NCBI GenBank assembly: GCA_963790025.1
Contig: CAWBMP010000005.1
Coordinates: forward strand, 224,001 to 288,000
Source: Nitrospirota bacterium
GTDB lineage: Bacteria > Nitrospirota > Thermodesulfovibrionia > Thermodesulfovibrionales > Dissulfurispiraceae
Length of the DNA stretch: 64,000 nt
Direction of reading: 5' to 3'
Shown here: in pieces, positions 10,290 through 55,374 of the stretch
Layout: the number at the start of each line of letters is the position of its first letter
Position numbering within the stretch: position 1 is the first letter of the stretch
The notes under the pieces: model-generated
The model's database searches: none
The model's input: only the letters and a program-made list of their open reading frames with translations
What the model was told of the DNA's origin: nothing
Made by a program: the position numbers and the translations under genes

Positions 10290-11230
10290 ATATACTGATA
10301 CCGCTTGCAATTATCATAGGTGTACTTTTTGTCCTGACAACTATCAGCGCCGGACTTATCTGGCTTGAGCGCAGATTGCTGGCCTTATGGCAGGACCGTT
10401 ATGGACCGAACCGGGTCGGTCCTTTCGGCTTGTTGCAGGTGGCAGCCGATATGGTCAAAATTTTCTTCAAGGAGGATTGGACCCCGCCGTTTGCCGATAA
10501 GACGGTATTTATACTGGCGCCTGCCATTATTATGATCAGTGTCTTCATGTCTTTTGCCGTCATCCCCTTTGCTCCGGGTATCGTCATTGCCGATATGAAT
10601 ATAGGCGTGCTCTTCTTTCTTGCCATGTCTTCATTGGGTGTCTACAGCGTTGTGCTGGCTGGATGGGCCTCGGACAGCAAATACTCGCTTCTTGGCGGCG
10701 TTCGTGCCGCTGCCCAGATGGTCAGTTATGAAGTTTTCATGGGCTTGTCGCTTATGGGAGTAGTGATACTGACCGGATCATTTAGTATCGGCGAAATTGT
10801 CGAGGCGCAGCGGGGGATGTGGTTTGTTGTTCCCCAGTTTGCCGGGTTCGTGATCTTCTTCATTGCCGGAGTCGCCGAAACTCACCGCTTGCCTTTTGAC
10901 CTGCCTGAATCTGAGAACGAGCTTGTGGCTGGATATCATACGGAGTATTCGGGGATGAAATTCGGCATGTTCTTTGTCGGCGAGTACCTGGGGATAACGC
11001 TCATTTCAGCGCTTGTTACTGTATTGTTTTTCGGCGGATGGCTCGGCCCGGTATTGCCGCCGGTAGTATGGTTTTTTCTTAAAACATTTATTTTCATCTG
11101 TTTGTTCATACTTTTAAGGGCGTCATTTCCGAGACCGCGCTATGATCAACTGATGTTCCTGGCGTGGAAGGTAATGCTGCCGCTGGCGTTATTGAATGTT
11201 GTCATTACAGGAGCACTAGTGCTCCTGTAA
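10286..11230 (+). CDS. nuoH: NADH-quinone oxidoreductase subunit H
   Basis: ERR...[38 protein letters not shown] overlaps nuoG stop. Confidence 0.96.
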
Positions 11231-11235
11231 TGACA
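11200..11235. repeat. Perfect 36-bp spacerless palindrome spanning the nuoH stop
   Basis: TGTCATTACAGGAGCACTAGTGCTCCTGTAATGACA equals its own reverse complement. Confidence 0.95.
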
Positions 11236-11349
11236 GGTAAAAGTAAAGGTAGAGGCAGGTAGAGGTAGAGGTAGAGGTAAAAAAAGTATGAGTAATAGTA
11301 AACAGACTTGGAAGTTGCTTTGGCTATACCTTTACCTGTGCCTATGCCT
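11235..11349. repeat. Hexamer-periodic inverted repeat element (AGGTAR)n...(YTACCT)n
   Basis: Tandem AGGTAG/AGGTAA units at 11235-11278 and complementary units at 11324-11349. Confidence 0.75.
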
Positions 11350-22150: not shown

Positions 22151-22180
22151 ACGCCATTTTCGGTGTACCTGGAGGCTGCC

Positions 22181-23737
22181 ATGGCCGACGACACAGATAA
22201 AGACATCCTATACAGCAAGTTCTTGCAGACATGCGATATACCGGTTGAGCAGACCGTGATCGAACCCTTTACTATAGTTATCTTTGGCGGGACCGGGGAC
22301 CTGAGCCAAAGGAAACTCCTGCCTTCAATTTTTAATCTATTCTGCGACGATATAGTGCCCGACCAAAAATTCTCGGTACTCGGCTTCGGCCGGAATGACA
22401 TTACCGATGAAGGCTACCGGGCGCTTGCGAAGGATGCAGTCATGAAGTTTAGTGAAGTGCAATTTGACGAGGAGAAATGGGACCGCTTCAGCAAGCATCT
22501 TTATTTTCTTTCGGGAGTTTTCGAAAACGATGAAAATTATGTGAGGCTGCATGATAAAACCAGCCGGATCACTCTGCCTGATTCAAAAGGAGACAAGGAA
22601 GTCATTTACTATATGGCGGTCCCGCCGCAGGTGGTACCGACTGTCGTTCAGAAATTAAAGAAACACAATCTCCGCCAGGGAACCATGACGGCCAAAATAA
22701 TAGTCGAGAAACCGTTCGGGAGAGACCGCCGGTCAGCAGTTGAACTGAACAATATATTGACGGATGCCTTTAAAGAAAACCAGATATACCGTATCGATCA
22801 TTATCTGGGAAAAGATCCCATACAGAATATTATATTCCTGCGTTTTATCAATTCAGTTTTCGCTGAGATGTGGAACCGGCATTATGTGGACAATGTGCAG
22901 ATAACGGTTGCCGAAGAGGTAGGCGTCGAGCACCGGGGCGCGTTTTATGAACAGGCTGGGGTAGTAAGAGATATAGTGCAGAACCACCTCCTGCAGCTTT
23001 TAGGCCTCATCGCGATGGAGCCCCCGGTCGGGTTTCAGGCCGATTTTATCCGCGATGAAAAATTAAAAATACTCAGGGCCATCCATTCGATAGATGCAAA
23101 GTATGTAGATCATTACATCGTGAGGGGCCAGTACGGCAAGGGAATTATAGGAGGCAGTGAGGCGCCGGGCTACCGTGATGAAGACCGGGTGGCGCCTGAT
23201 TCAAACACGCCGACTTTTTTTGCCGGCAAATTTTACATTGATAATTTGCGATGGGCAGGGGTACCGTTTTATATCCGTACCGGGAAGCGCATGCCGAGGC
23301 GAGTCACCGATATCTGTATACAGCTTAAACATGTTCCGGTCAAACTGTTTGGCCGGACCTGTGACGTACTGGAGCCGAACATTCTTATTCTGACTATTCA
23401 GCCCGATGAGAAGATTTCGCTGCGCTTCAGTGTCAAATACCCTTATTCCGAGAACCAGGTATATCCGGTGGATATGGTTTTCAACTATAGCGAAGTATTT
23501 AAGATGCAGAAACGTCCGGCTTATGAGCGGTTGCTTATCGACATGCTGAAAGGCGATTTGACCCTTTTTGTCAGGGAAGATGCGGTAGAGGAGATGTGGG
23601 ACATAGTGGAAGAGATCAACAGTCGATGGGAAAACACTCCCGATGCAGAGTTCCCTAATTACGCGGCAGGCACCTGGGGACCGGAGGAGGCGCATCAACT
23701 TCTTGAGAGGGACGGGCGTCACTGGATAACAAAGTAA
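22181..23737 (+). CDS. zwf: Glucose-6-phosphate 1-dehydrogenase
   Basis: GGTGDL, EKPFG, RIDHYLGK, RDIVQNH, RWAGVPFYIRTGK, AYERL. Confidence 0.95.
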   Translation: MADDTDKDILYSKFLQTCDIPVEQTVIEPFTIVIFGGTGDLSQRKLLPSIFNLFCDDIVPDQKFSVLGFGRNDITDEGYRALAKDAVMKFSEVQFDEEKWDRFSKHLYFLSGVFENDENYVRLHDKTSRITLPDSKGDKEVIYYMAVPPQVVPTVVQKLKKHNLRQGTMTAKIIVEKPFGRDRRSAVELNNILTDAFKENQIYRIDHYLGKDPIQNIIFLRFINSVFAEMWNRHYVDNVQITVAEEVGVEHRGAFYEQAGVVRDIVQNHLLQLLGLIAMEPPVGFQADFIRDEKLKILRAIHSIDAKYVDHYIVRGQYGKGIIGGSEAPGYRDEDRVAPDSNTPTFFAGKFYIDNLRWAGVPFYIRTGKRMPRRVTDICIQLKHVPVKLFGRTCDVLEPNILILTIQPDEKISLRFSVKYPYSENQVYPVDMVFNYSEVFKMQKRPAYERLLIDMLKGDLTLFVREDAVEEMWDIVEEINSRWENTPDAEFPNYAAGTWGPEEAHQLLERDGRHWITK

Positions 23738-23739
23738 GG

Positions 23740-23900
23740 GACGGTCTCGTAAAAAGTCCATATGCTGCGTTGCACTGCATCCTTCGTCACTCGCACCCCA
23801 AAAGACTTCGGCTTTTGGGGACCCCGTGCGGCGTACGAAAAAGTACGCCTCATTCCTCAGGATTTGCGCGCCTTGCCTATGAACTTTTTACGAAACCGTC
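23740..23900. mobile_element. 161-bp MITE-like element with nested hairpin
   Basis: 23-bp terminal inverted repeats with 2 mismatches (GACGGTCTCGTAAAAAGTCCATA / TATGAACTTTTTACGAAACCGTC); inner hairpins CCCCAAAAG/CTTTTGGGG and GGCGTAC/GTACGCC. Confidence 0.75.
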
Positions 23901-23914
23901 AGGTATAGTTGGTA

Positions 23915-24667
23915 ATGGATAATTCGCGACGGGTATTGGTTTTCGGAAGTGGCGACGAGATGGCGGATTTTATGGTGGAGCGGTGGAGTGAACTCTCCAG
24001 TTCTGCCATCGAAAGCAGGGGGTATTTTGCTGCGGCCCTTTCGGGAGGAGAAACACCGGTCCGTTTTTACCGCAAACTTGCTGCGCGGGGAGCAGGTTTT
24101 CAGTGGAACAAGATACATCTGTTCCTCGCCGACGAGCGCTTTGTCCACCCGGACCATACTGACAGCAATTACCATTTGCTCCGTGAGACACTCTTAAAGG
24201 ACCTGCCGGTCCCCGGCAGTAATATCCATGCGGTGACTACCGATGGACCGGACGCGCAGTTATCGGCGAGAAAATATGAAGAGGAAATGAAAAAGTTTTT
24301 TAAGACCACGGGGGAAGGCCTTCCCGAATTTGACCTTATTATGCTGGGCCTTGGTACGGACGGACATACCGCATCGCTTTTTCCAGGGGATAAGGCACTC
24401 GATGATACACGGCATCTTGCTTGTGCAGTGGACCTTGACAATGTCCGGCACGACCGGATTACGCTGACACTTCCGGTGATCAACAATGCCCGTATGGTGG
24501 TATTTCTCGTTAGCGGAAAGACCAAGGCATCGGTGTTCCGCGATGTTGTGGAGAGTAGGGACCACCATTTTCCCGCCTCACTGGTGGACCCTGAGAAGGG
24601 GAGCTTGTTGTTTCTCGCCGATACGGAGGCCGCACAGTATTTGACTGAAACTCACATCCGGCGATAA
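23915..24667 (+). CDS. pgl: 6-phosphogluconolactonase
   Basis: ALSGGETP, DERFV, SNY, LGLGTDGHTASLFP, RITLT. Confidence 0.94.
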   Translation: MDNSRRVLVFGSGDEMADFMVERWSELSSSAIESRGYFAAALSGGETPVRFYRKLAARGAGFQWNKIHLFLADERFVHPDHTDSNYHLLRETLLKDLPVPGSNIHAVTTDGPDAQLSARKYEEEMKKFFKTTGEGLPEFDLIMLGLGTDGHTASLFPGDKALDDTRHLACAVDLDNVRHDRITLTLPVINNARMVVFLVSGKTKASVFRDVVESRDHHFPASLVDPEKGSLLFLADTEAAQYLTETHIRR

Positions 24668-24880
24668 GGAGTTGTCATTCGCACTCTGACTTACTTTGCC
24701 ATAACGGCAATCAACTTTAGTAGACACTATTTGATCTGGTAGTATACAACCAAGTATAGCTTGCACCTGATACTTGACACCGGAGATTCTTTTTCAGGAC
24801 TCTCGATTTTCGTTACTAACCCTCGGACTTATGCTGATGAGCAGGATTGTGAAAGCTTAGATATGTCGTCCATGAGAAAG

Positions 24881-24907
24881 CTAAATGCACGAACGCAAGC
24901 CTGACCC
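24881..24907 (-). repeat. REP-like repeat, copy 1
   Basis: CTAAATGCACGAACGCAAGCCTGACCC, near reverse complement of the copy at 25363. Confidence 0.75.
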
Positions 24908-25293: not shown

Positions 25294-25362
25294 AGATTAA
25301 AGAATCAAGGGGAATCACGAACACAAATGAAAGGAGGATTGAGCCCATGAAAAGGAAACAAT

Positions 25363-25390
25363 GGGGTCAGGCTTGCATACGTGCATTTAA
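25363..25390 (+). repeat. REP-like repeat, copy 2 (left of RAYT)
   Basis: GGGGTCAGGCTTGCATACGTGCATTTAA with internal TGCA...TGCA dyad. Confidence 0.75.
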
Positions 25391-25410
25391 GTGTACTATA
25401 TTTTGGCATC

Positions 25411-26331
25411 ATGGCAAGGCCGCCACGCATAGAATTTCCCGGAGCGTTTTATCATGTAATAGTCCGTGGCAATCTGAAGCAGGACATTTTTATAGATGAA
25501 CAAGATAGGCTTGAGTATCTTGAGCGCATAAAACGTTATAAAGAAAAATGCGGATTTATTTTTTATGCATACATCCTTATGACAAACCATGTACATTTAC
25601 TCATTGAGACCCCCAAAGCGCCTTTATCAAAGATAATGCAACTTATAAATTTCACATACACACAGTATTTTAATAAGAAATACAATAAGGTCGGGCATCT
25701 TTTTCAGGGCAGGTATAAGTCTTTTCTGTGTGACCGGGACGAATATCTTTTAGGGCTGCTCAGATATATACATCTGAATCCGGTACGTGCAGGAATAGTA
25801 AGCAGACCGGAGGCTTACAAATGGAGCAGTCATAATCAATACTTAAAGGAAGGTAATGGGATAGTTGACGCTGAGAGGGTTTTAAGGCTTTTTTCGGAGA
25901 AAGTATCAGAAGCTCGGAAGCGATACAGAGGTTTTGTAAAAGAGGCGATAGGCGCTGAAAGAGACGACTCGTTTTACAAGGCTGTAGATCAGCAGATAGT
26001 AGGAGGGGATAAGTTTTTAGAAATAATAGAAGATAAAATTGATGAATTGGACAGGCCGATAAGAAAGCTTACGTTGAAAAAGGCCATAAAGGCAGTTGAG
26101 GAAGTGACAGGCGTACTTTGGGATGAGATAAGCTCCCGAAGCAGGAGCAAGGAAGTAATATTTGCGCGAGGATTATTAGTTGGGGTATGGAGAGAGGCGG
26201 GGCATCGGATGGTGAACTTACAGCCCCAACTGAGGAGGGACTTATCAGTGCTTTCAAGATTGTCAAAAATCTCAGAGAGTGAAAGAGGACGAAAAGCCAT
26301 GAAACAAATATTTCACATGCTAAATGCATGA
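25411..26331 (+). CDS. Y1/HUH REP-associated tyrosine transposase (RAYT-like) with C-terminal helical extension
   Basis: MARPPR start, YHVIVRGN, MTNHVHLL (HUH), GHLFQGRY, YIHLNP, WSS; lower GC than flanks. Confidence 0.88.
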   Translation: MARPPRIEFPGAFYHVIVRGNLKQDIFIDEQDRLEYLERIKRYKEKCGFIFYAYILMTNHVHLLIETPKAPLSKIMQLINFTYTQYFNKKYNKVGHLFQGRYKSFLCDRDEYLLGLLRYIHLNPVRAGIVSRPEAYKWSSHNQYLKEGNGIVDAERVLRLFSEKVSEARKRYRGFVKEAIGAERDDSFYKAVDQQIVGGDKFLEIIEDKIDELDRPIRKLTLKKAIKAVEEVTGVLWDEISSRSRSKEVIFARGLLVGVWREAGHRMVNLQPQLRRDLSVLSRLSKISESERGRKAMKQIFHMLNA

Positions 26332-26345
26332 ACGCAAGCCTGAAC
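26320..26345 (-). repeat. REP-like repeat, copy 3 (right of RAYT), interrupted by IS110
   Basis: CTAAATGCATGAACGCAAGCCTGAAC; the missing CCC resumes at 27807. Confidence 0.7.
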
Positions 26346-26375
26346 ATCCCGCTGGAATTTTCAATATATTTTTTC

Positions 26376-27574
26376 TTATTTAGATAAGATGTACCCTCTG
26401 TTCTCCTTCAGCATCTTGAAAATAACACGGCAAAGATGACGACCAAGCGCACGTAGTGCCTGGTTATGTTTCTTGCCTTCAGCTCTTTTTTTCTCATAAT
26501 ATTGTTGAGACTGCGGAACTTGTTTTCGGTGCCGATCTACGGCAACCATCATTGCGGCCTTAGCCCGAGTATTAACCTGCGTTGGTGGTTTTGATCCTTT
26601 TTGCTTGCCTGAACTATTGTCAAGATTCGCCATCCCAATATACAGAGCCAGACTTGCTTCGCTGCCAAAGCGCTCGATAGTTCCAATCTCTCCGGCGAGT
26701 TCAGATGTACAAATGGAACCGAATCCTGGAATGGTTGCGAGCGTTTGCGCAATATCCGAGCCGTGTGCAACACCCTCCATCTTTGCTTCAAGTGATTTTA
26801 TCTTGGCATGGAGTTCCATCACGCGGATTGCATCTTCCTGGATCATTTCACCGACCCACTCGACGTCGTGACTAAACTGTGCTGTTTTCTGCCATTCAAC
26901 AATAACAGAGGCATATTTCTTACCAATGCCCGGATCTTGCGGATAGTTGTTTCCCGCATGCGTGCAAGCGTGCGAAGGTCATCCGTGCTGGTCAGAAATC
27001 CAAGAAACCACATATTGTCGGCCTCACCGGTAATCTCCAGAAGTCCCGGACATACAGCGTGAAGATCGGCCTGTAGGTTGTTTACTACCCGTACTCGCTC
27101 ATCGACCAAACGACGCCGGCGCCGTGATAGCCGCTTTAGAATGTCGTTGTCCCGCGGCGTTTTGCGTACCTCCTGCAGCACATCCTTGGCTATCGGCAGA
27201 TGATCTCGAAGCTGAAAAAGCTCCAGTCCTTTCCTTGCGTCGATTGCATCGGTCTTCGCGGCACCGGGGAATATCTCCTTGAATCGAGCAAGCTTGAGAT
27301 TGTTGATATTGAAGAGGCGATAATTGCGGGCTCGAACGAGCGTGTCCAGCGGACGTGCGTAGCCGTTGAAGCCCTCCATTGCTACGGCAACGGGACAACT
27401 AAACCTTTGCTCCTGCTTCTCGATGCGACAGAAGAATTGCCGGAACCCTTCAGGTTCATGCACGATTGAGAATTCATCGAGGACTTCACCGCTGGATAGG
27501 CCGATTGCAACGTTGTGACTGCGGCAGCCAATATCGACGCTTACACGCAGTTCGAGGGGATCATCTTTTTTCAT
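26376..27574 (-). pseudogene. IS110 recombinase, single frameshift near 26930
   Basis: DEDD residues (VDIG, AMEG, KTDAID); C-terminal TIPGFG, NSSGK, RALGRHL; adding one G in CCGGGC gives KIRGIGKKYA and fuses the two ORFs. Confidence 0.88.
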
Positions 27575-27589
27575 GTAGTCTCCTTTGCA

Positions 27590-27795
27590 GACAAGATTAT
27601 CATCCTCAGGTCTCGTCTACTTACAGAGCCACATTTGGCACCATCCCGGTCGACCCTTTTGAGGATGATGCAGATGACGGAGGCGGCATTTCAGACTCAA
27701 GTGAGCCTGAATGAACAGGCCACTGACCCCACAAGCCACACCCCCGTTAAGCATATCTTACATGAATAAAGCTGCCATAGTCATCTGCATAAATC
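27590..27795 (-). ncRNA. Putative IS110 bridge RNA
   Basis: Two stem-closed domains (11-bp 27668-27678/27780-27790; 10-bp 27599-27608/27660-27669) whose loops match the IS ends and the REP target. Confidence 0.65.
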
Positions 27796-28070
27796 CTATG
27801 GTAGACCCCAGCACCAGCAATCTTTCGAGCTTTACAAAAAAGGTTACCCCGTGAAGCAGATACGGGATACTGTAGAAAAGGAATTCAAATAATAACTCCC
27901 ATATGGTGGCAGTTGATGTACAAAACCAACACTGCCGCTGAGATGGCCGGGACGTTTGTTCCTTAGTGAACATCCGTTTCTCGGCTATGCTCATCGATGC
28001 GTGTTATAGAAAAAGCACCTTGTAACCCCCTAATTCACAACGCAGACGACCGCCTGCCTTATGAGCAGTA

Positions 28071-28415
28071 TCAGGTGCAGCCAGCAGGTTGCGGAATCCC
28101 CGCATACCTGCAGATCCGTTGTAGAGGCTTTTCAGGGAATAGTGAGTACAGCACCTTTATCGAGTATCGCTCACTGCCCAACTGCCGGTTTAACCTTTTC
28201 ACAATCACTTTCGGCATCGGGCTAATGTTGAATGTTCGGTAATAATCGCGAGCAAAACGGATTACCTGCCAGTGTTCATCAGTCAGCAACATGCCGTCTG
28301 CCGCACTGTAATATTCGGCAACCTGCGGAGACCAGTCATCAGGGTTGGCAAGGAAGCCGTCGGCATCCAGCTCAATGGTTTTACCGCCTATCGTAATATG
28401 GTTGTTTGCATCCAT
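28071..28415 (-). CDS. dsrC: DsrC/TusE-family sulfur relay protein with C-X10-C terminus
   Basis: DADGFL...DDWS, LTDEHWQVI, LYSLFP, CRYAGIPQPAGC; family is clear, DsrC versus TusE function is less so. Confidence 0.82.
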   Translation of the reverse strand: MDANNHITIGGKTIELDADGFLANPDDWSPQVAEYYSAADGMLLTDEHWQVIRFARDYYRTFNISPMPKVIVKRLNRQLGSERYSIKVLYSLFPEKPLQRICRYAGIPQPAGCT

Positions 28416-50743: not shown

Positions 50744-51949
50744 TTATTGTGGTACAGGGCAGCGTGGGATTTCTGCCTGCTCCTTTCTTACCGGCATATA
50801 CCACAGCCAGCCGTCCACTATCATCAGTATACCTGCAGCAATTAAAAAAGCGTCGATGGCTGTCAGAATGCTGAAGCCGAAATAGTGCATGAGACCCAAC
50901 CCCAGGCTGGCAAAGGAAACTCCGGTCCTGATAAAGGCGAGTCCGGTCCTCGCCCTGGCATATAAAGTACGATAGCATGCGGCAACTGTACGTTGTGCGG
51001 CCAGAACGTTTCTTTCCCGCGCAAGATGGGTCCGTTCCCTGCTGGAAGGCGACGGATACAAAATAGTGCAGTGATCCGCAAGAAAATCGCCGAGACGGGC
51101 AAGCATAGTCTGCCCTGCCGGCAGATGAGTTCCGGGTTGGTCAATAAAATGATAGTTCTCAAGAAACTGGATCGTTGCCGCCGTTACTTCGACAAGCGTC
51201 TGGTCTCCGGGCGGCTTCATCCTTGACTTCCTTATTTTCAAATAACCGGTCAACCCGAAAAGAGCAAGAAAAAACCCTCCGGCCATAACACCATATAAAT
51301 AAAAAACACGACTCGATTTAAAAGAACGAATCAGTATATCAGATACAGCAATAAGCCGCAATCCCCATCTGAGGAAAGAAAAGTCAGTCCTGGCCATTGC
51401 CAGGTCGGTCCTGTAGCACGCCAGCCGCGTCCTCCATTGCGCCATAGTATTGCGCCAAAATGCAAGTCCTGTCCTTTCGGTCCCGATAAGATAACCTGGT
51501 TTTTCATGCAGAAAGTCCTGGATGAACCATTGTATGTCCTCTCCAAGCGCCACCCAGAATTCATATTTTTCAGCTTTAATAAACTTTTTTACCTCATCAT
51601 GCACTGTGGGGTCTGACGGATTATTCGCAGCCACAACCACCGTATTGCCGTCTCTAATGATCGGAAACCACTGATTTATCGACAGTCGTTCACCATCCAA
51701 ACCTGCGAGCAGTTCCGGCGGTATCGGCATTCGCTCATCATATTCCACAAAAGGGCACTGGTAATAATTTGAAAGTGCCTGCAGCAGAATATGCTTTGGG
51801 ATGCGATACTCCGCGATAAGTACACTTTCCAGATCGATACCTCTGGCGGAAGCGGCACGCTCGGCTTCACAAAGTCTGTCCCGGGTCAGTACGCCCCAAC
51901 TGATCAGGTCATTAAACTTATTGGAAGCGATACTATCAACGCTCATCAT
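50744..51949 (-). CDS. MshEN-like domain plus two DUF202-like membrane modules
   Basis: N-terminal LISWGVLT...L...CPFVEY...WFP; two ERTxLAxxR heptad runs, each followed by a TM hairpin; start overlaps the upstream stop. Confidence 0.72.
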   Translation of the reverse strand: MMSVDSIASNKFNDLISWGVLTRDRLCEAERAASARGIDLESVLIAEYRIPKHILLQALSNYYQCPFVEYDERMPIPPELLAGLDGERLSINQWFPIIRDGNTVVVAANNPSDPTVHDEVKKFIKAEKYEFWVALGEDIQWFIQDFLHEKPGYLIGTERTGLAFWRNTMAQWRTRLACYRTDLAMARTDFSFLRWGLRLIAVSDILIRSFKSSRVFYLYGVMAGGFFLALFGLTGYLKIRKSRMKPPGDQTLVEVTAATIQFLENYHFIDQPGTHLPAGQTMLARLGDFLADHCTILYPSPSSRERTHLARERNVLAAQRTVAACYRTLYARARTGLAFIRTGVSFASLGLGLMHYFGFSILTAIDAFLIAAGILMIVDGWLWYMPVRKEQAEIPRCPVPQ

Positions 51950-53642
51950 TACTGAAGACCACCTTTTTCCACGAACGGGCCGGTATGCCGTAATCAGGGA
52001 TAATAAGCTCCATCTGTCCATAACAATACGGGTACTGCTTTCTTATTTTTTCTGCCGGAAAATGCCAGTAAAACCCATCGGCAATCAGTGTCAATCCAAC
52101 CACTATCAGCAACATGTTAAATATAGACCATGCAGCATTGCCCGCACCAAAGAAAACCATGAGTTCCATGCCGACGGCAGTTATGCCTACTCCTGTTCTG
52201 ATAAAAGCCAGTCCGGTCCTTGACCGTGCCATTACTGTCCGCAGTCGCGCCATCACATTTCTCCGGTCGGCGAGCATGGTCCTTTCGAGAGCAAGCCCTG
52301 TAGTAGCCCATATACCCGGTGCATGGGACGGCCTGACAGGCGGAACACACTTGTAATCCGAAGCGGGATGTTTTAACGCCGGAGGAAAAACAAAATCCCA
52401 AATAGTCTGTTTAGTCTGCGTATTCCTGACTGCATTAAAACTTATAGAACCGGCACGGCGGCCCGGGAGATACCAGTAAAAACCCTCTGCAGCCATGGCA
52501 ATACCGCTAATAATAAGAGCGACATCAAAGAAAGTCCACGGTCCTGGACGGAACTGACGCAATAACCCAATACCGAATCCTATAAAGGCAACACCTGTCC
52601 TCGAAAAAGCCAATCCGGTGCGCGCCCTTGCCATTTTTGTTCTGTAGCATGCCAGCACAGTCCTCTCCTCGGCAAAGTCCGTTCTATCGCTGGCAAGGAA
52701 CCTGCGTCTCATAACCGGGGAGAGGTTGTTCCAGTACGAACGCAGGACTGCCGCATCTTGCACATAGCCGGTACGTTCAAAGAGAGGATTGTCACCAGGA
52801 TTCACGACTTTAAGAACAGTGGTCCCCCATGTCGCTTCAGTACCTCCGAAATCATATAATTTTCTCCCTGATTTTCGGGTAGGGATATACCACCGCAGGC
52901 CGTCGACGGTCATAACCACGCCTGAAATGAACAGTGCCGCTTCAAATACCGTTAATAGCCCTATACCTAAAATTCTGAAAAGCACGATAGCGACCGCCAT
53001 AAAAGATATCCCGGTCCGGAGAAAGGCCAGTCCGGTCCTTCCTTTTGCCAGGGACGTTCTGGTACATGCCAGCAAAGAGCGCCTGTCCGCCAGAAATGTT
53101 CTCACTTTTGCAAGGGGCGTCCTGCCTGCCGCTGGGGGGAAATGAGGATTGACATCAAAGTTGTGTTCTATGATCCTTACAACGTCTGAAGGCAGAGCAA
53201 TAACGAAATGGATATTCTCAACTCGAAGTTTATCTTTAATGTCCTGAATTACATCAGGGTCGGAAGGATCATATACAATCACTTCGGCCTGCATTCCCCC
53301 GACGTAATAGGGAAACCAGAGTTTGCGTTTCAGGTCCTCCATATTCAGACGCATGGTAATAAAATAGGAAGACAAGCCGCTCTCATCATATTCTATAAAA
53401 GGGAAATCGAGATGCCTGGTGAATGCCATCCGGGAAGGTATCACAGTCTCGTCGTATTCGACAAAAGGACACATGTAAAATTCGGAAAGGCAGAACAATA
53501 TCTCGTGTTTGGGAACTCCCTTTTCAATCAAACATTCCTCAGGATACTTTCCCGCAGCAAATGAATCCCTTATGCAGTTATCCAGTTCATTTTCGGTGAG
53601 GATGCCTCTTCTTATAAGCCGTTCAAATTTATTGTTTAACAT
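51936..53642 (-). CDS. MshEN-like domain plus three DUF202-like membrane modules
   Basis: LIRRGILTENEL; three RTxLAxx heptad runs ending RTG plus TM hairpins; close paralogue of 53731-55374. Confidence 0.75.
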   Translation of the reverse strand: MLNNKFERLIRRGILTENELDNCIRDSFAAGKYPEECLIEKGVPKHEILFCLSEFYMCPFVEYDETVIPSRMAFTRHLDFPFIEYDESGLSSYFITMRLNMEDLKRKLWFPYYVGGMQAEVIVYDPSDPDVIQDIKDKLRVENIHFVIALPSDVVRIIEHNFDVNPHFPPAAGRTPLAKVRTFLADRRSLLACTRTSLAKGRTGLAFLRTGISFMAVAIVLFRILGIGLLTVFEAALFISGVVMTVDGLRWYIPTRKSGRKLYDFGGTEATWGTTVLKVVNPGDNPLFERTGYVQDAAVLRSYWNNLSPVMRRRFLASDRTDFAEERTVLACYRTKMARARTGLAFSRTGVAFIGFGIGLLRQFRPGPWTFFDVALIISGIAMAAEGFYWYLPGRRAGSISFNAVRNTQTKQTIWDFVFPPALKHPASDYKCVPPVRPSHAPGIWATTGLALERTMLADRRNVMARLRTVMARSRTGLAFIRTGVGITAVGMELMVFFGAGNAAWSIFNMLLIVVGLTLIADGFYWHFPAEKIRKQYPYCYGQMELIIPDYGIPARSWKKVVFSNDER

Positions 53643-53730
53643 AGTATATAAAGCCCAGAAACTTCATTATTATAAATTATAGCCATATTAATAATAAAAT
53701 TTTTTCTCTTCCGGGCAAGGCTCCATATTT

Positions 53731-55374
53731 TTAGCCGCTCTCATCGGTCCTGAACACCACCTTTTTCCATAAACGGGCCGGTTTGCCATAATCAGGTATT
53801 ATAAGTTCCATGTCTCCATAGCAGTAGGGGTACTGCTTTCTTATTTTCTCGGCTGGGATGTGCCAATAGAAACCATCAGCAATAAGAGCCAATCCAACCA
53901 CTATCAATAATATGTTGAATATCGTCCACGCGATATTGCCGGCACCGAAATAAACAAGGAGTTCCGTTCCTACCGCAGATACGCCTACCCCGGTTCTGAC
54001 CAGCGCCAGACCGGTCCTTGACCGGGTCATTACCGTTCGCAGCCTTAACATTACGTTTCTCCTGTCGGCAAGCATAGTCCTCTCAAGAGCAAGGCCCGTA
54101 GTAGCCCAGATCCCCGGCTCACTGGACGGCCTGACGTTCAGAACGCACTTGTAGTCAGAACCTGGTTGCTTTAGCGCATGAGGAAAGGCAAGGTCCCATA
54201 TATTCTGTTTACCCTCTGATTTGCGGACCGACTTGAAGCTCATCGAACCGGCACGGCGGCCCGGAAAATACCAGTAAAAGCCCTCTGCCGCCATTGCGAG
54301 GCCCACAGCGACAAGCGCTGCATCAAAAAAAGTCCAGGGACCGGGACGGAACTGGCGTAATAGCGCAATGCCGAACCCGATAAAGACAATTCCAGTCCTT
54401 GCAAATGCCAACCCTGTGCGCGCCCTCGCCATTGTTGTCCATAAGCACACGTGCGTCGTCCTTTCCTCGGCAAAATCGGTCCTGTCGCTCGAAAAAAACC
54501 TGCGCCGCATTACCGGAGACAGATTGTTCCATCGGGAACGCAACAACGCCGCACCTTCCACGTGACCTGTTCGTGTAAAAAGAGGGTCGTCACCGGGGTC
54601 CGTCATTTTAAGGACAGTAGTTCCCCAAGTCGGTTCAGTTGCAGTAAAATCAAAAACTCTTCTCCCTGTTTTTCGTGCGGGGATATACCATAAAAGGCCG
54701 TCATAAATCATGAGTATGCCCGAAATGAACAATGCCCCTTCAAAAAAAACCGAAAGCCCCATACCGAAAACCCTGAAAAGAACAACCGCGATGGCCATAA
54801 AAGCCATACCGGTGCGTATAAAGGCCAGTCCGGTCCTCCCTTTTGCCAGGGACGTCCTGGTACAAGTCATCAAAGAGCGCCTGTCAGCCAGAAATGTCCT
54901 CACTTTCGCCAGAGGCGTCCTGCCGGCTGAGAATGGGAAATGAGGATTCACATCAAAGTTGTGTTCGATAATCCGAATAAGGTCCGAAGGCAGAGCAACA
55001 ATAAAATTGACCTCCCGAACTCCAAGTGTGGCTTCGACATCCTCCATGACATCAGGGTCGAAAGGATGACACGCAATAACCTCGGCACGGCCTTTGCTGA
55101 CGGCGAGAGGAAACCAGAGATTTCGTTTGAGTTTCTCCATATTGAGACGCCTGGTGAGAAAAAAAGAGGCGATGACGCTCTCATCATATTCGACAAAAGG
55201 ACAACTATAGAACTCAGTCAGCGAGAACAATATCTCGTGTTTCGGGACACCCCTTTCAATCAGCCATTCTTCAAGAAGCCTACCTGCCGCTGCGGACTCT
55301 CTGATATTTTCATCCAATTCCTTTTCGGTGAGAATACCATTTTTTAAAAGTCTCTCGAATTTGTTTTTTAACAT
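53731..55374 (-). CDS. MshEN-like domain plus three DUF202-like membrane modules
   Basis: LLKNGILTEKEL; three heptad runs plus TM hairpins; no ATPase motifs. Confidence 0.75.
   Translation of the reverse strand: MLKNKFERLLKNGILTEKELDENIRESAAAGRLLEEWLIERGVPKHEILFSLTEFYSCPFVEYDESVIASFFLTRRLNMEKLKRNLWFPLAVSKGRAEVIACHPFDPDVMEDVEATLGVREVNFIVALPSDLIRIIEHNFDVNPHFPFSAGRTPLAKVRTFLADRRSLMTCTRTSLAKGRTGLAFIRTGMAFMAIAVVLFRVFGMGLSVFFEGALFISGILMIYDGLLWYIPARKTGRRVFDFTATEPTWGTTVLKMTDPGDDPLFTRTGHVEGAALLRSRWNNLSPVMRRRFFSSDRTDFAEERTTHVCLWTTMARARTGLAFARTGIVFIGFGIALLRQFRPGPWTFFDAALVAVGLAMAAEGFYWYFPGRRAGSMSFKSVRKSEGKQNIWDLAFPHALKQPGSDYKCVLNVRPSSEPGIWATTGLALERTMLADRRNVMLRLRTVMTRSRTGLALVRTGVGVSAVGTELLVYFGAGNIAWTIFNILLIVVGLALIADGFYWHIPAEKIRKQYPYCYGDMELIIPDYGKPARLWKKVVFRTDESG

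Follow-up and report, generated by a model that had tools for sequence, protein, structure and literature searches.

An IS110-group insertion sequence with a predicted bridge RNA and an apparent TC core in a Nitrospirota contig

The locus and its recombinase gene

The DNA analysed here, called the window throughout, is a stretch of 64,000 nucleotides (nt) from contig CAWBMP010000005.1 of a Nitrospirota bacterium, and its minus strand carries a frameshifted transposase gene preceded by a long, structured non-coding end. We consider it probable that this region is an IS110-group insertion sequence (IS) of the bridge-RNA-guided kind, composed of a DEDD/Ser recombinase gene and a left end that encodes the bridge RNA, and that the element comprises 1,462 base pairs (bp), namely 27803..26344 on the minus strand plus one TC. 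This is one joint degree of confidence, which covers the element, the RNA, the guides, the TC core and the target together. The system itself was described in 2024, and the element is a further ordinary case of IS110 biology; no second copy occurs in the 64,000-nt window. Its left non-coding end measures 229 nt (27803-27575) and its right end 32 nt (26375-26344). The parts of the element and its edges, in minus-strand order, are as follows.

27806..27812, minus strand: left target half (LT), GCTGGGG, host flank outside the element; the left flanks of homologues end in (A/T)TGGGG
27804..27805, minus strand: left copy of the TC core, shared by junctions and empty sites
27575..27803, minus strand: left non-coding end with the predicted bridge RNA gene (minimum free energy z = -3.69; kept in 53/79 related loci; structural covariation)
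26843..27574, minus strand: recombinase N-terminal frame, 243 amino acids (aa), RuvC-like DEDD domain (PF01548, DEDD_Tnp_IS110, E = 3.9e-22)
26929..26934, minus strand: frameshift, one base missing (AAGAT-CCGGGC in the window against AAGATCCCCGGC in the related locus L001)
26376..26936, minus strand: recombinase C-terminal frame, Tnp domain with SG motif (PF02371, Transposase_20, E = 3.8e-15)
26344..26350, minus strand: right end (left donor half), GGGATGT; across copies GGGATGT-TC 42, GGGATGA-TC 7, GGGATGG-TC 1 and, in Chlamydiota copies, GGGATG-TC 7
26342..26343, minus strand: right copy of the TC core, shared by junctions and empty sites

The two recombinase frames jointly span the entire protein. 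The first open reading frame (ORF), 27574..26843, keeps the residues D14, E67, D109 and D112, and the second, called as 26846..26376 and overlapping the first, keeps the invariant S322-G323 as LDNSSGK. Together with the two Pfam domains and the score of the intact orthologue L001 against the NCBIfam model NF033542, 'IS110 family RNA-guided transposase' (159.3 bits, cut-off 140), these residues uphold the IS110-group identity that a first-pass annotation, made from the sequence alone, had assigned to the region. The frameshift that it had reported is likewise present in the sequence, one base being missing relative to intact orthologues, which are 399 aa long. Judged by comparison with those orthologues, the lesion is decay or an assembly error and not a programmed shift, because other truncated homologues break at different places. 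Programmed frameshifting was entertained and ruled out: most homologues are intact at 399 aa, and the truncated proteins P0003, P0027 and P0014 are broken elsewhere. The identical truncated 243-aa protein recurs in the protein collection as three members on two contigs. The window copy is probably dead, a full-length recombinase being impossible unless the frameshift is an assembly error.

A single scan of genome contigs with the N-terminal ORF gave 79 related loci (numbered with the prefix L) from metagenome-assembled and isolate genomes, and the protein family holds 2,413 proteins at E <= 1e-20, mostly of 399 aa. The protein tree places the window copy beside copies from Nitrospirota genomes, within a family found in at least 14 phyla. 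The cultured Geotalea daltonii FRC-32 carries a copy with 74% identity (P0096). The family is distant from the characterised bridge recombinases: the intact orthologue, used as a single phmmer query, finds no match among Protein Data Bank (PDB) chains, the IS621 structures included, and the family profile, which matches the ISCro4 transposase (9t56, E = 8.9e-11) and the IS621 transposase (8wt6, E = 1e-9), aligns to IS621 only in the C-terminal domain, residues 252-394. Some members (L011/L012/L022, L030/L036/L037/L040/L041, L027 and L039) are longer by about 100-140 bp (1,558-1,602 against about 1,460 bp), and their recombinases carry C-terminal extensions, up to 427 aa. Directly upstream of the L001 copy lies a 136-nt inverted fragment of a recombinase gene (L001:2618-2753, 87.5% identical), probably a remnant of another copy.

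The left-end RNA and its guides

The first-pass annotation, reading the minus strand, had placed a bridge RNA in the left end. Compared with 200 shuffles, the 232 nt that precede the start codon gave the better fold every time (200/200; z = -3.69), and a scan of 26000-28200 against Rfam (E <= 10) returned no match and no bridge-RNA family. A left-end motif lies 214-280 nt upstream of the start codon in 53 of the 79 loci; with the window these give 49 distinct left ends from many phyla. RNAalifold, applied to these 49, recovered the basal stems of two domains independently, with many GC-to-AU exchanges. The structure that we tested was written from the window sequence and then counted on the 49-sequence alignment; it consists of a long-range helix P1, a first loop with basal stem and apical hairpin, and a second loop with basal stem, 4-bp inner helix and apical hairpin. 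Its parts, and the guide segments proposed within the loops, are these.

27670..27788, minus strand: helix 1, 7 pairs, 5 compensatory, 91% of cells paired
27677..27747, minus strand: target-binding loop domain; basal stem 27747-27735 with 27687-27677, apical hairpin 27725-27698
27725..27734, minus strand: proposed left target guide UUGUGGGGUC, the same as the LT top strand plus TC; 5/7 non-core positions fit its own flank
27689..27697, minus strand: proposed right target guide AGUCUGA (27697-27691; GA pairs TC) followed by AA at the handshake positions (27690-27689)
27599..27669, minus strand: donor-binding loop domain (helices 4-7); basal stem 27669-27660 with 27608-27599, apical hairpin 27639-27628
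27642..27648, minus strand: proposed left donor guide CGGGAUG, identical 7/7 to the right end 26351-26345
27615..27620, minus strand: proposed right donor guide GUAGA (27620-27616, pairing TC and TAC) followed by C at the handshake position (27615, pairing G27806)

Counted over 46 pairs in 49 left ends, the paired share of cells is 90.2%, where shuffles give 84.0%. This percentage is flattered by deriving the structure from one member of the alignment; the stronger evidence is the compensatory change in 28 of the 46 pairs against 16.2 in shuffles. No shuffle of 500 reaches any of the five measures, and controls in which the partners were slid by 1-3 columns leave only 34-47% of cells paired. 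The compensatory pairs in homologous left ends, which none of the 500 shuffles equals, bear out the bridge RNA as first proposed. Helix 2 (11 pairs) is 100% paired with 6 compensatory pairs, and helix 3 has 10 pairs with 6 compensatory; in the donor-binding domain the inner helix GGUC (27655-27652) with GACC (27612-27609) has compensatory change in 3 of its 4 pairs and the apical hairpin in 2 of 3. RNAalifold also proposes short pairs inside the loops (columns 111-113/148-150, 195-197/203-205 and 234-237/243-246), which were excluded from the tested structure as showing almost no compensatory change and as occupying the guides. In nearly all sequences the first of these would join the GGG of the left target guide (columns 111-113) to the (C/U)CU of the right target guide (columns 148-150), a pairing that may be a self-masking of the target loop or a mere consequence of the target sequence. 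The left end also contains a 45-aa ORF (27754..27617); the region shows 1-2-nt indels and compensatory pair changes.

Every motif that the first-pass annotation had listed is present on the minus strand. The stem ATCATCCTCA (27669-27660) with TGAGGATGAT (27608-27599) is a perfect 10-bp helix, the apical hairpin is formed by GCCA (27639-27636) and TGGC (27631-27628), CGGGATG occurs both at 27648-27642 and at 26351-26345, and GTAGAC (27620-27615) is the reverse complement of GTCTAC (27806-27801). The domain so delimited corresponds to the donor-binding loop, with CGGGAUG as left and GUAGA(C) as right donor guide. The 6-nt complementarity between GTAGAC and GTCTAC is therefore real as a match, and its reading changes: we take it as a 5-nt right donor guide plus one handshake base that would read the flank.

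Four loop segments and four DNA half-sites were extracted for each locus. Right donor guide and left end covary, and all 54 loci conform (54/54), with TAC/GUAGA in 45, TAT/AUAGA in 8 and TAT/AUGGA, with a G:T wobble, in 1. A failure of guides and ends to covary had been named beforehand as the outcome that would speak against the idea. The TAT state requires four changes on the protein tree, of which at least two, as forced by well-supported branches, and up to four are independent. The left donor guide is nearly invariant in the family; in L044 guide and end are both altered, to GGAAUG and GGAATG, and L043 and L049 have one left-donor-guide mismatch each.

It could be argued that the left end is a mere 5′ untranslated region or regulatory leader, whose matches to the ends reflect coincidence or shared ancestry with no guide role. 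Single 6-7-mers are indeed not rare, CGGGATG by itself occurring 16 times in the window against 10.6 expected, and no Rfam family was matched. Yet the guide bases change with their partner DNA in at least two independent lineages and in the Chlamydiota relatives, the variable right target guide follows the variable right flank, and the two-loop architecture with its compensatory pairs is the published plan of a bridge RNA. We regard the observation as lying beyond chance because of the folding z-score of the left end, the conserved and compensated helices and loop motifs, and the covariation of loops with ends, and we give the leader explanation practically no weight.

Core dinucleotide, circle junction and target repeat

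Two dinucleotides, GT and TC, each occur at both junctions of the element (GGG-GT-C-TACC and GAT-GT-TC-AGG), and the choice between them alters the predicted empty site by a single T. The first-pass annotation had chosen GT, with the boundaries 26344-27806 and the donor CGGGAT-GT-CTAC; written out, that model has the element at 27806..26344, the donor junction CGGGAT-GT-CTAC and the target TGGG-GT-TCAGGC. In its favour are the presence of GT at both junctions (GGG-GT-CTAC, GGGAT-GT-TCAG), the full complementarity of GUAGAC to GTCTAC, and a T at core position 2, which would fit the IS621 rule. Both candidate empty sites were built from the flanks of each locus and sought in all loci and in the window, and the matches were overwhelmingly of the one-T form. 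Outside the elements, in 270,204 nt, GGGTCA[GA][GA] occurs 68 times against 2 for GGGTTCA[GA][GA], and GGGGTCAGG occurs 13 times against none for GGGGTTCAGG, the empty site that a GT core predicts. The empty-site search had been suggested as a check by the annotation itself, and for the GT-core form GGGGTTCAGGC it likewise returned 0 against the same 13 in these flanks.

The two unoccupied paralogous sites in the window, at 24907-24880 on the minus strand and 25360-25391 on the plus strand, read GGGGTCAGGC with a single T, and the 13-mer GGGTCAGGCTTGC, intact at 24895-24907 (minus) and 25364-25376 (plus), is interrupted at the insertion. True paralogous empty sites, with 15-25 nt more of right-flank identity, were found for L050, L013, L016, L028, L011, L031 and L064 and twice for the window; every such flank-homologous site has one T. 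The empty site GGGG-TC-AGGC therefore makes TC the duplicated dinucleotide, the only one that GGGG-TC-TACC at the left junction, GATGT-TC-AGGC at the right junction and the empty sites have in common, and it gives 27803..26344 as the element proper, with G27806 as host DNA. The GT core and its donor are thus not sustained, and the boundaries first assigned were one base off, G27806 belonging to the target flank. A GT core would moreover leave the right target guide mismatched at core position 1 and the handshake positions unpaired, and would give a promoter spacing of 16 nt here against 17 nt in the Chlamydiota relatives. We hold it to be very improbable. Primers, donor constructs and guide designs built on the GT junction would be one base off.

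Homology to the window element in blastn starts 3-4 nt before and stops 4-9 nt after the coordinates first assigned. The immediate flanks are themselves conserved: the left one reads ...(A/T)TGGG|GTCTACCAT... and the right one ...CTTGAAAATTCCAGCGGGATGT|TCAGGC(C/T)TG. Among 58 right-end matches TC is constant in 57, preceded by T in 42, A in 7 and G in 8; the 58th is spurious. As single cases, L071 and L074 have CC for TC at the left junction, and L071 is internally deleted.

A Chlamydiota sub-family (one genome, nine loci, 50-52% protein identity) has junctions of different sequence, CCCT-TC-TACCAT on the left and GCGGGATG-TC-GGGCC on the right, and these share only TC in the nine left and seven right junctions that can be read, two loci lacking the right end. 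Fourteen empty copies of its target repeat read CCCTTCGGGC. Its guides have changed with its DNA: GUAGA-AG stands opposite the flank ..CT-TC-TAC, with A opposite T where the window has C opposite G, and the right target guide GGCCCGA stands opposite TCGGGCC.

A subtler alternative keeps the same empty site and the same circle junction and moves the exchange one base to the left, so that the cores would be non-identical xT dinucleotides, with target GGG-GT-CAGGC and donor GGGATG-TT-CTACC, and the core-facing guide bases would match the incoming strand instead of the resident one. This arrangement retains a T at core position 2, as in IS621 and ISPpu10, lets the left donor guide fall exactly into a 7+2 register (CGGGAUG+GU), fits the notion that the first core base is less conserved, in that the base before TC varies (T 42, A 7, G 8 of 57), and agrees with the right junction of L038, GGGATG-GT-C. 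It would, however, lead one to expect heteroduplex segregants, whereas in motif searches that are biased towards the common forms the left form GGGTTCTA(C/T)CAT occurs 0 times against 64 for GTCTA(C/T)CAT, and the right form GGGATGG-TC only once against 42 for GGGATGT-TC. In the Chlamydiota copies, furthermore, the polarity would have to be reversed (target TT, donor GT), and there too no segregants are seen. We judge the shifted exchange unlikely; strand exchange at TC is more likely than exchange one base upstream.

With TC as core, a mechanism can be proposed by analogy with IS621. The element would leave as a circle with the predicted junction GGGATGT-TC-TACCAT (in the extra-T form GGGATGTTCTACC), which is longer by one T than the donor first proposed, and the joined right end, TC and left end would assemble a putative sigma-70 promoter, TTGAAA-17 nt-TACCAT, to drive the bridge RNA, as the part of the IS621 account on which we draw describes for that element (PMC11208158). 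The two putative promoter boxes are these.

27798..27803, minus strand: TACCAT, start of the right donor half and putative -10 box for a promoter at the circle junction; conserved, with TACCAT or TATCAT across the family
26359..26364, minus strand: TTGAAA, putative -35 box in the right end, conserved in right ends as TTG(A/T/C)A(A/T)

When the ends of the window copy are joined via TC, the spacing from TTGAAA to TACCAT is 17 nt, and it is also 17 nt in the Chlamydiota copies, whose right end has one base fewer at the tip and one more upstream; the GT junction first proposed would give 16 nt. As the sequence shows, loop 1, the target-binding loop, carries UUGUGGGGUC in the sense of the left flank with TC, together with AGUCUGA, complementary to TC and the right flank; loop 2, the donor-binding loop, carries CGGGAUG in the sense of the right end, together with GUAGA, complementary to TC and the TAC of the left end. 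The recombinase-RNA complex would then exchange strands at the TC common to circle and target, and the nucleotide 3′ of each right-hand guide would pair position 7 of the other DNA, in a 'handshake' as in IS621. C27615 can pair the target base G27806 and not the donor T, and A27690 can pair the donor base T26344 and not the target G, so that with a TC core the handshake logic of IS621 would hold for one base per side, position 7 of the other DNA.

The fit of target guides to their own flanks was scored by permutation over 32 of the 54 loci, namely those in which both junctions and both guides were available and the flanks reached at least 10 nt. The right target guide varies greatly and tracks the right flank, with 8/8 positions in L015 and 7/8 in L016, L017 and L013; its mean match is 5.78/8 (Watson-Crick plus wobble) against 4.92 permuted, a value reached in 0 of 10,000 permutations. 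The left target guide averages 4.84/7 against 4.54 permuted (62/10,000), a weaker signal because its GGGG part hardly varies.

Several points weigh against the interpretation set out so far. The permutation tests ignore relatedness and include multi-copy genomes, and in L031 the left target guide was mis-extracted, an error that only lowers the observed score. The guides of the window fit their own flanks moderately, the left at 5/7 positions and the right with 4 Watson-Crick and 3 wobble pairs of 8, and the sole copy in the window is frameshifted. The left donor guide CGGGAUGGU pairs poorly with TC and falls into a 7+2 register only if the exchange is shifted by one base. The handshake-position A is unchanged in the 5 readable loci of the 7 whose right end is GGGATGA. 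Lastly, C at core position 2 conflicts with the near-invariant second T reported in the consulted part of the IS621 study (PMC11208158). As to cores other than CT, the paper texts covered by our literature search gave only CT (IS621, ISPpu10) and nothing on TC. One conjecture, to which we would give a little under an even chance, is that this lineage exchanges at TC with a left donor guide that stops short of the core, or else uses non-identical xT cores with guide bases for the incoming strand. If true, the core rule of IS621 and ISPpu10 would not be general, and the lineage would be a natural scaffold whose core requirement differs. The specialist interest of the element lies in this apparent TC core and in the relation of the donor loop to it.

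The natural target is, within the same joint explanation and so again probably, a repeat, GGGG-TC-AGGCTTGC..., inverted copies of which flank a transposase gene of the Y1 family that resembles those associated with repeated extragenic palindromes (REPs). The host features concerned are these.

24880..24907, minus strand: second unoccupied target repeat, about 450 bp further upstream
25360..25391, plus strand: unoccupied target repeat (GGGGTCAGGCTTGC...), just upstream of the Y1 gene
25411..26331, plus strand: Y1 (IS200-like / REP-associated-like) tyrosine transposase gene (PF01797, Y1_Tnp, E = 3.8e-16)
26319..26341, minus strand: right target half, remainder of the interrupted repeat (AGGCTTGCGTTCATGCATTTAGC); nearly the same sequence as the unoccupied copy 24907-24880; overlaps the Y1 stop codon on the other strand

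The Y1 protein scores 79.2 bits against the NCBIfam model REP_Tyr_transpos, just below the cut-off of 80, and also shows a weak DnaA_C-like helix-turn-helix match, under the Pfam cut-off. Its gene is flanked by inverted repeats of about 30 bp (GGGGTCAGGCTTGC..GTGCATTTA..), with copies at 24880-24907 (minus), 25360-25391 (plus) and 26319-26343 (minus), and gene and repeats together look like a unit of the REP and REP-associated tyrosine transposase (RAYT) type. Y1 homologues (37-51% identity) occur in 10 of the 79 loci (L004, L009, L011, L025, L027, L039, L049, L050, L052 and L064); in most of these, from several phyla, they adjoin the IS copy, often about 40 bp past its right end. The present IS family seems to follow the Y1-associated repeat across hosts. 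A survey by Tobes and Pareja from 2006 (PMC1525189) and a further paper (PMC12288879) are said to bear on REP-targeting IS110-type insertions. Short tandem arrays resembling the target stand in the left flanks of L004, L014, L016 and L039; in L016, for instance, GAACTGGGGTCA occurs twice, and L014 has GTGGGGTCG three times.

The insertion is neighboured at 22163-24667 (plus) by a glucose-6-phosphate dehydrogenase gene and a 6-phosphogluconolactonase-type gene, and at 28071-28415 (minus) by a gene for a DsrC-like protein. Elsewhere in the window, two adjacent paralogous genes at 50744-55374 (minus), whose products of 568 and 547 aa both combine an MshEN domain with DUF202 repeats, explain the 73-80% direct repeats D1-D3, and an 82-nt imperfect palindrome lies at 11177-11258, its two 41-nt arms 73% complementary with no spacer.

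Comparison with known systems

Bridge RNAs as a means of programming DNA recombination were described only recently, and each well-annotated natural orthologue extends the catalogue of guide architectures and core requirements. The present family is far from the characterised enzymes and very widespread in environmental bacteria, its donor ends are nearly invariant and its natural target is conserved. The published systems are described below from portions of the cited texts. Computational prediction has already yielded bridge RNA orthologues in the thousands (PMC11208160). The published plan, which the RNA described here matches, comprises a 5′ stem-loop and two loops, of which the first is variable and the second conserved (PMC11208160); that study counts a recombinase as IS621-like at >= 30% identity over 80% of its length (PMC11208160, methods). 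In IS621 the T at the second place of the core hardly ever varies, and it is the backbone of the protein that reads it (PMC11208158). The two nucleotides 3′ of each right-hand guide serve there as handshake guides, which, once the top strands have been exchanged, pair with the other DNA at positions 6-7 and are required not to pair with their own (PMC11208158, PMC13626964).

Like IS621 of Escherichia coli (Durrant 2024, PMC11208160; Hiraizumi 2024, PMC11208158), the present family combines a DEDD RuvC-like domain, a coiled coil and a Tnp domain with catalytic Ser-Gly; a long left end that encodes an RNA, here a predicted one, with a 5′ stem-loop and two internal loops, the first variable and the second conserved; a 2-bp core at both junctions and a repeated extragenic target; a -35 box in the right end and a -10 box in the left end, both putative here, which would be united in the circle; and handshake positions 3′ of the right-hand guides. 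It differs from IS621 in its recombinase (399 aa against 326-328 aa), in the shared dinucleotide (TC here, where the IS621-like pattern is CT or a second T), in a left donor guide that stops short of the core, in a right donor guide of 5 contiguous nt, and in the extra long-range helix P1, which encloses the 5′ stem-loop and loop 1. A specificity unlike that of IS621 had been claimed from the outset; the claim is true, and such a difference is to be expected of any IS110 orthologue. Among solved structures the best relative of the family profile is the ISCro4 transposase (PDB 9t56), mainly in its C-terminal domain.

The IS1111 group, whose DEDD transposase is guided by a seekRNA from a non-coding end (Siddiquee 2024, PMC11187229), is alike in that respect. 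There the RNA is encoded on the downstream side of the transposase gene, its guides come in the reverse order, and subterminal inverted repeats of 11-13 bp are present (PMC11187229, in the portion used here); in the present family, by contrast, the structured RNA lies upstream, the right end is 32 nt long, and no such inverted repeats are seen. Membership of the IS1111 group is ruled out by the upstream RNA and the 32-nt right end.

Insertion of IS110-family elements into repeated extragenic palindromes is known from IS621 and ISPpu10 (bioRxiv 10.64898/2026.03.19.712850). As far as the available part of that preprint goes, the present family resembles ISPpu10 and ISPpu9 of Pseudomonas putida in its site-specific insertion into a repeated extragenic sequence, in the expression of the bridge RNA from a junction promoter, which is putative here, and in the tolerance of natural mismatches in the donor loop. 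It is unlike ISPpu10, where the core is CT; here the target repeat is the one flanking a Y1 gene, and it recurs beside Y1 genes in several phyla.

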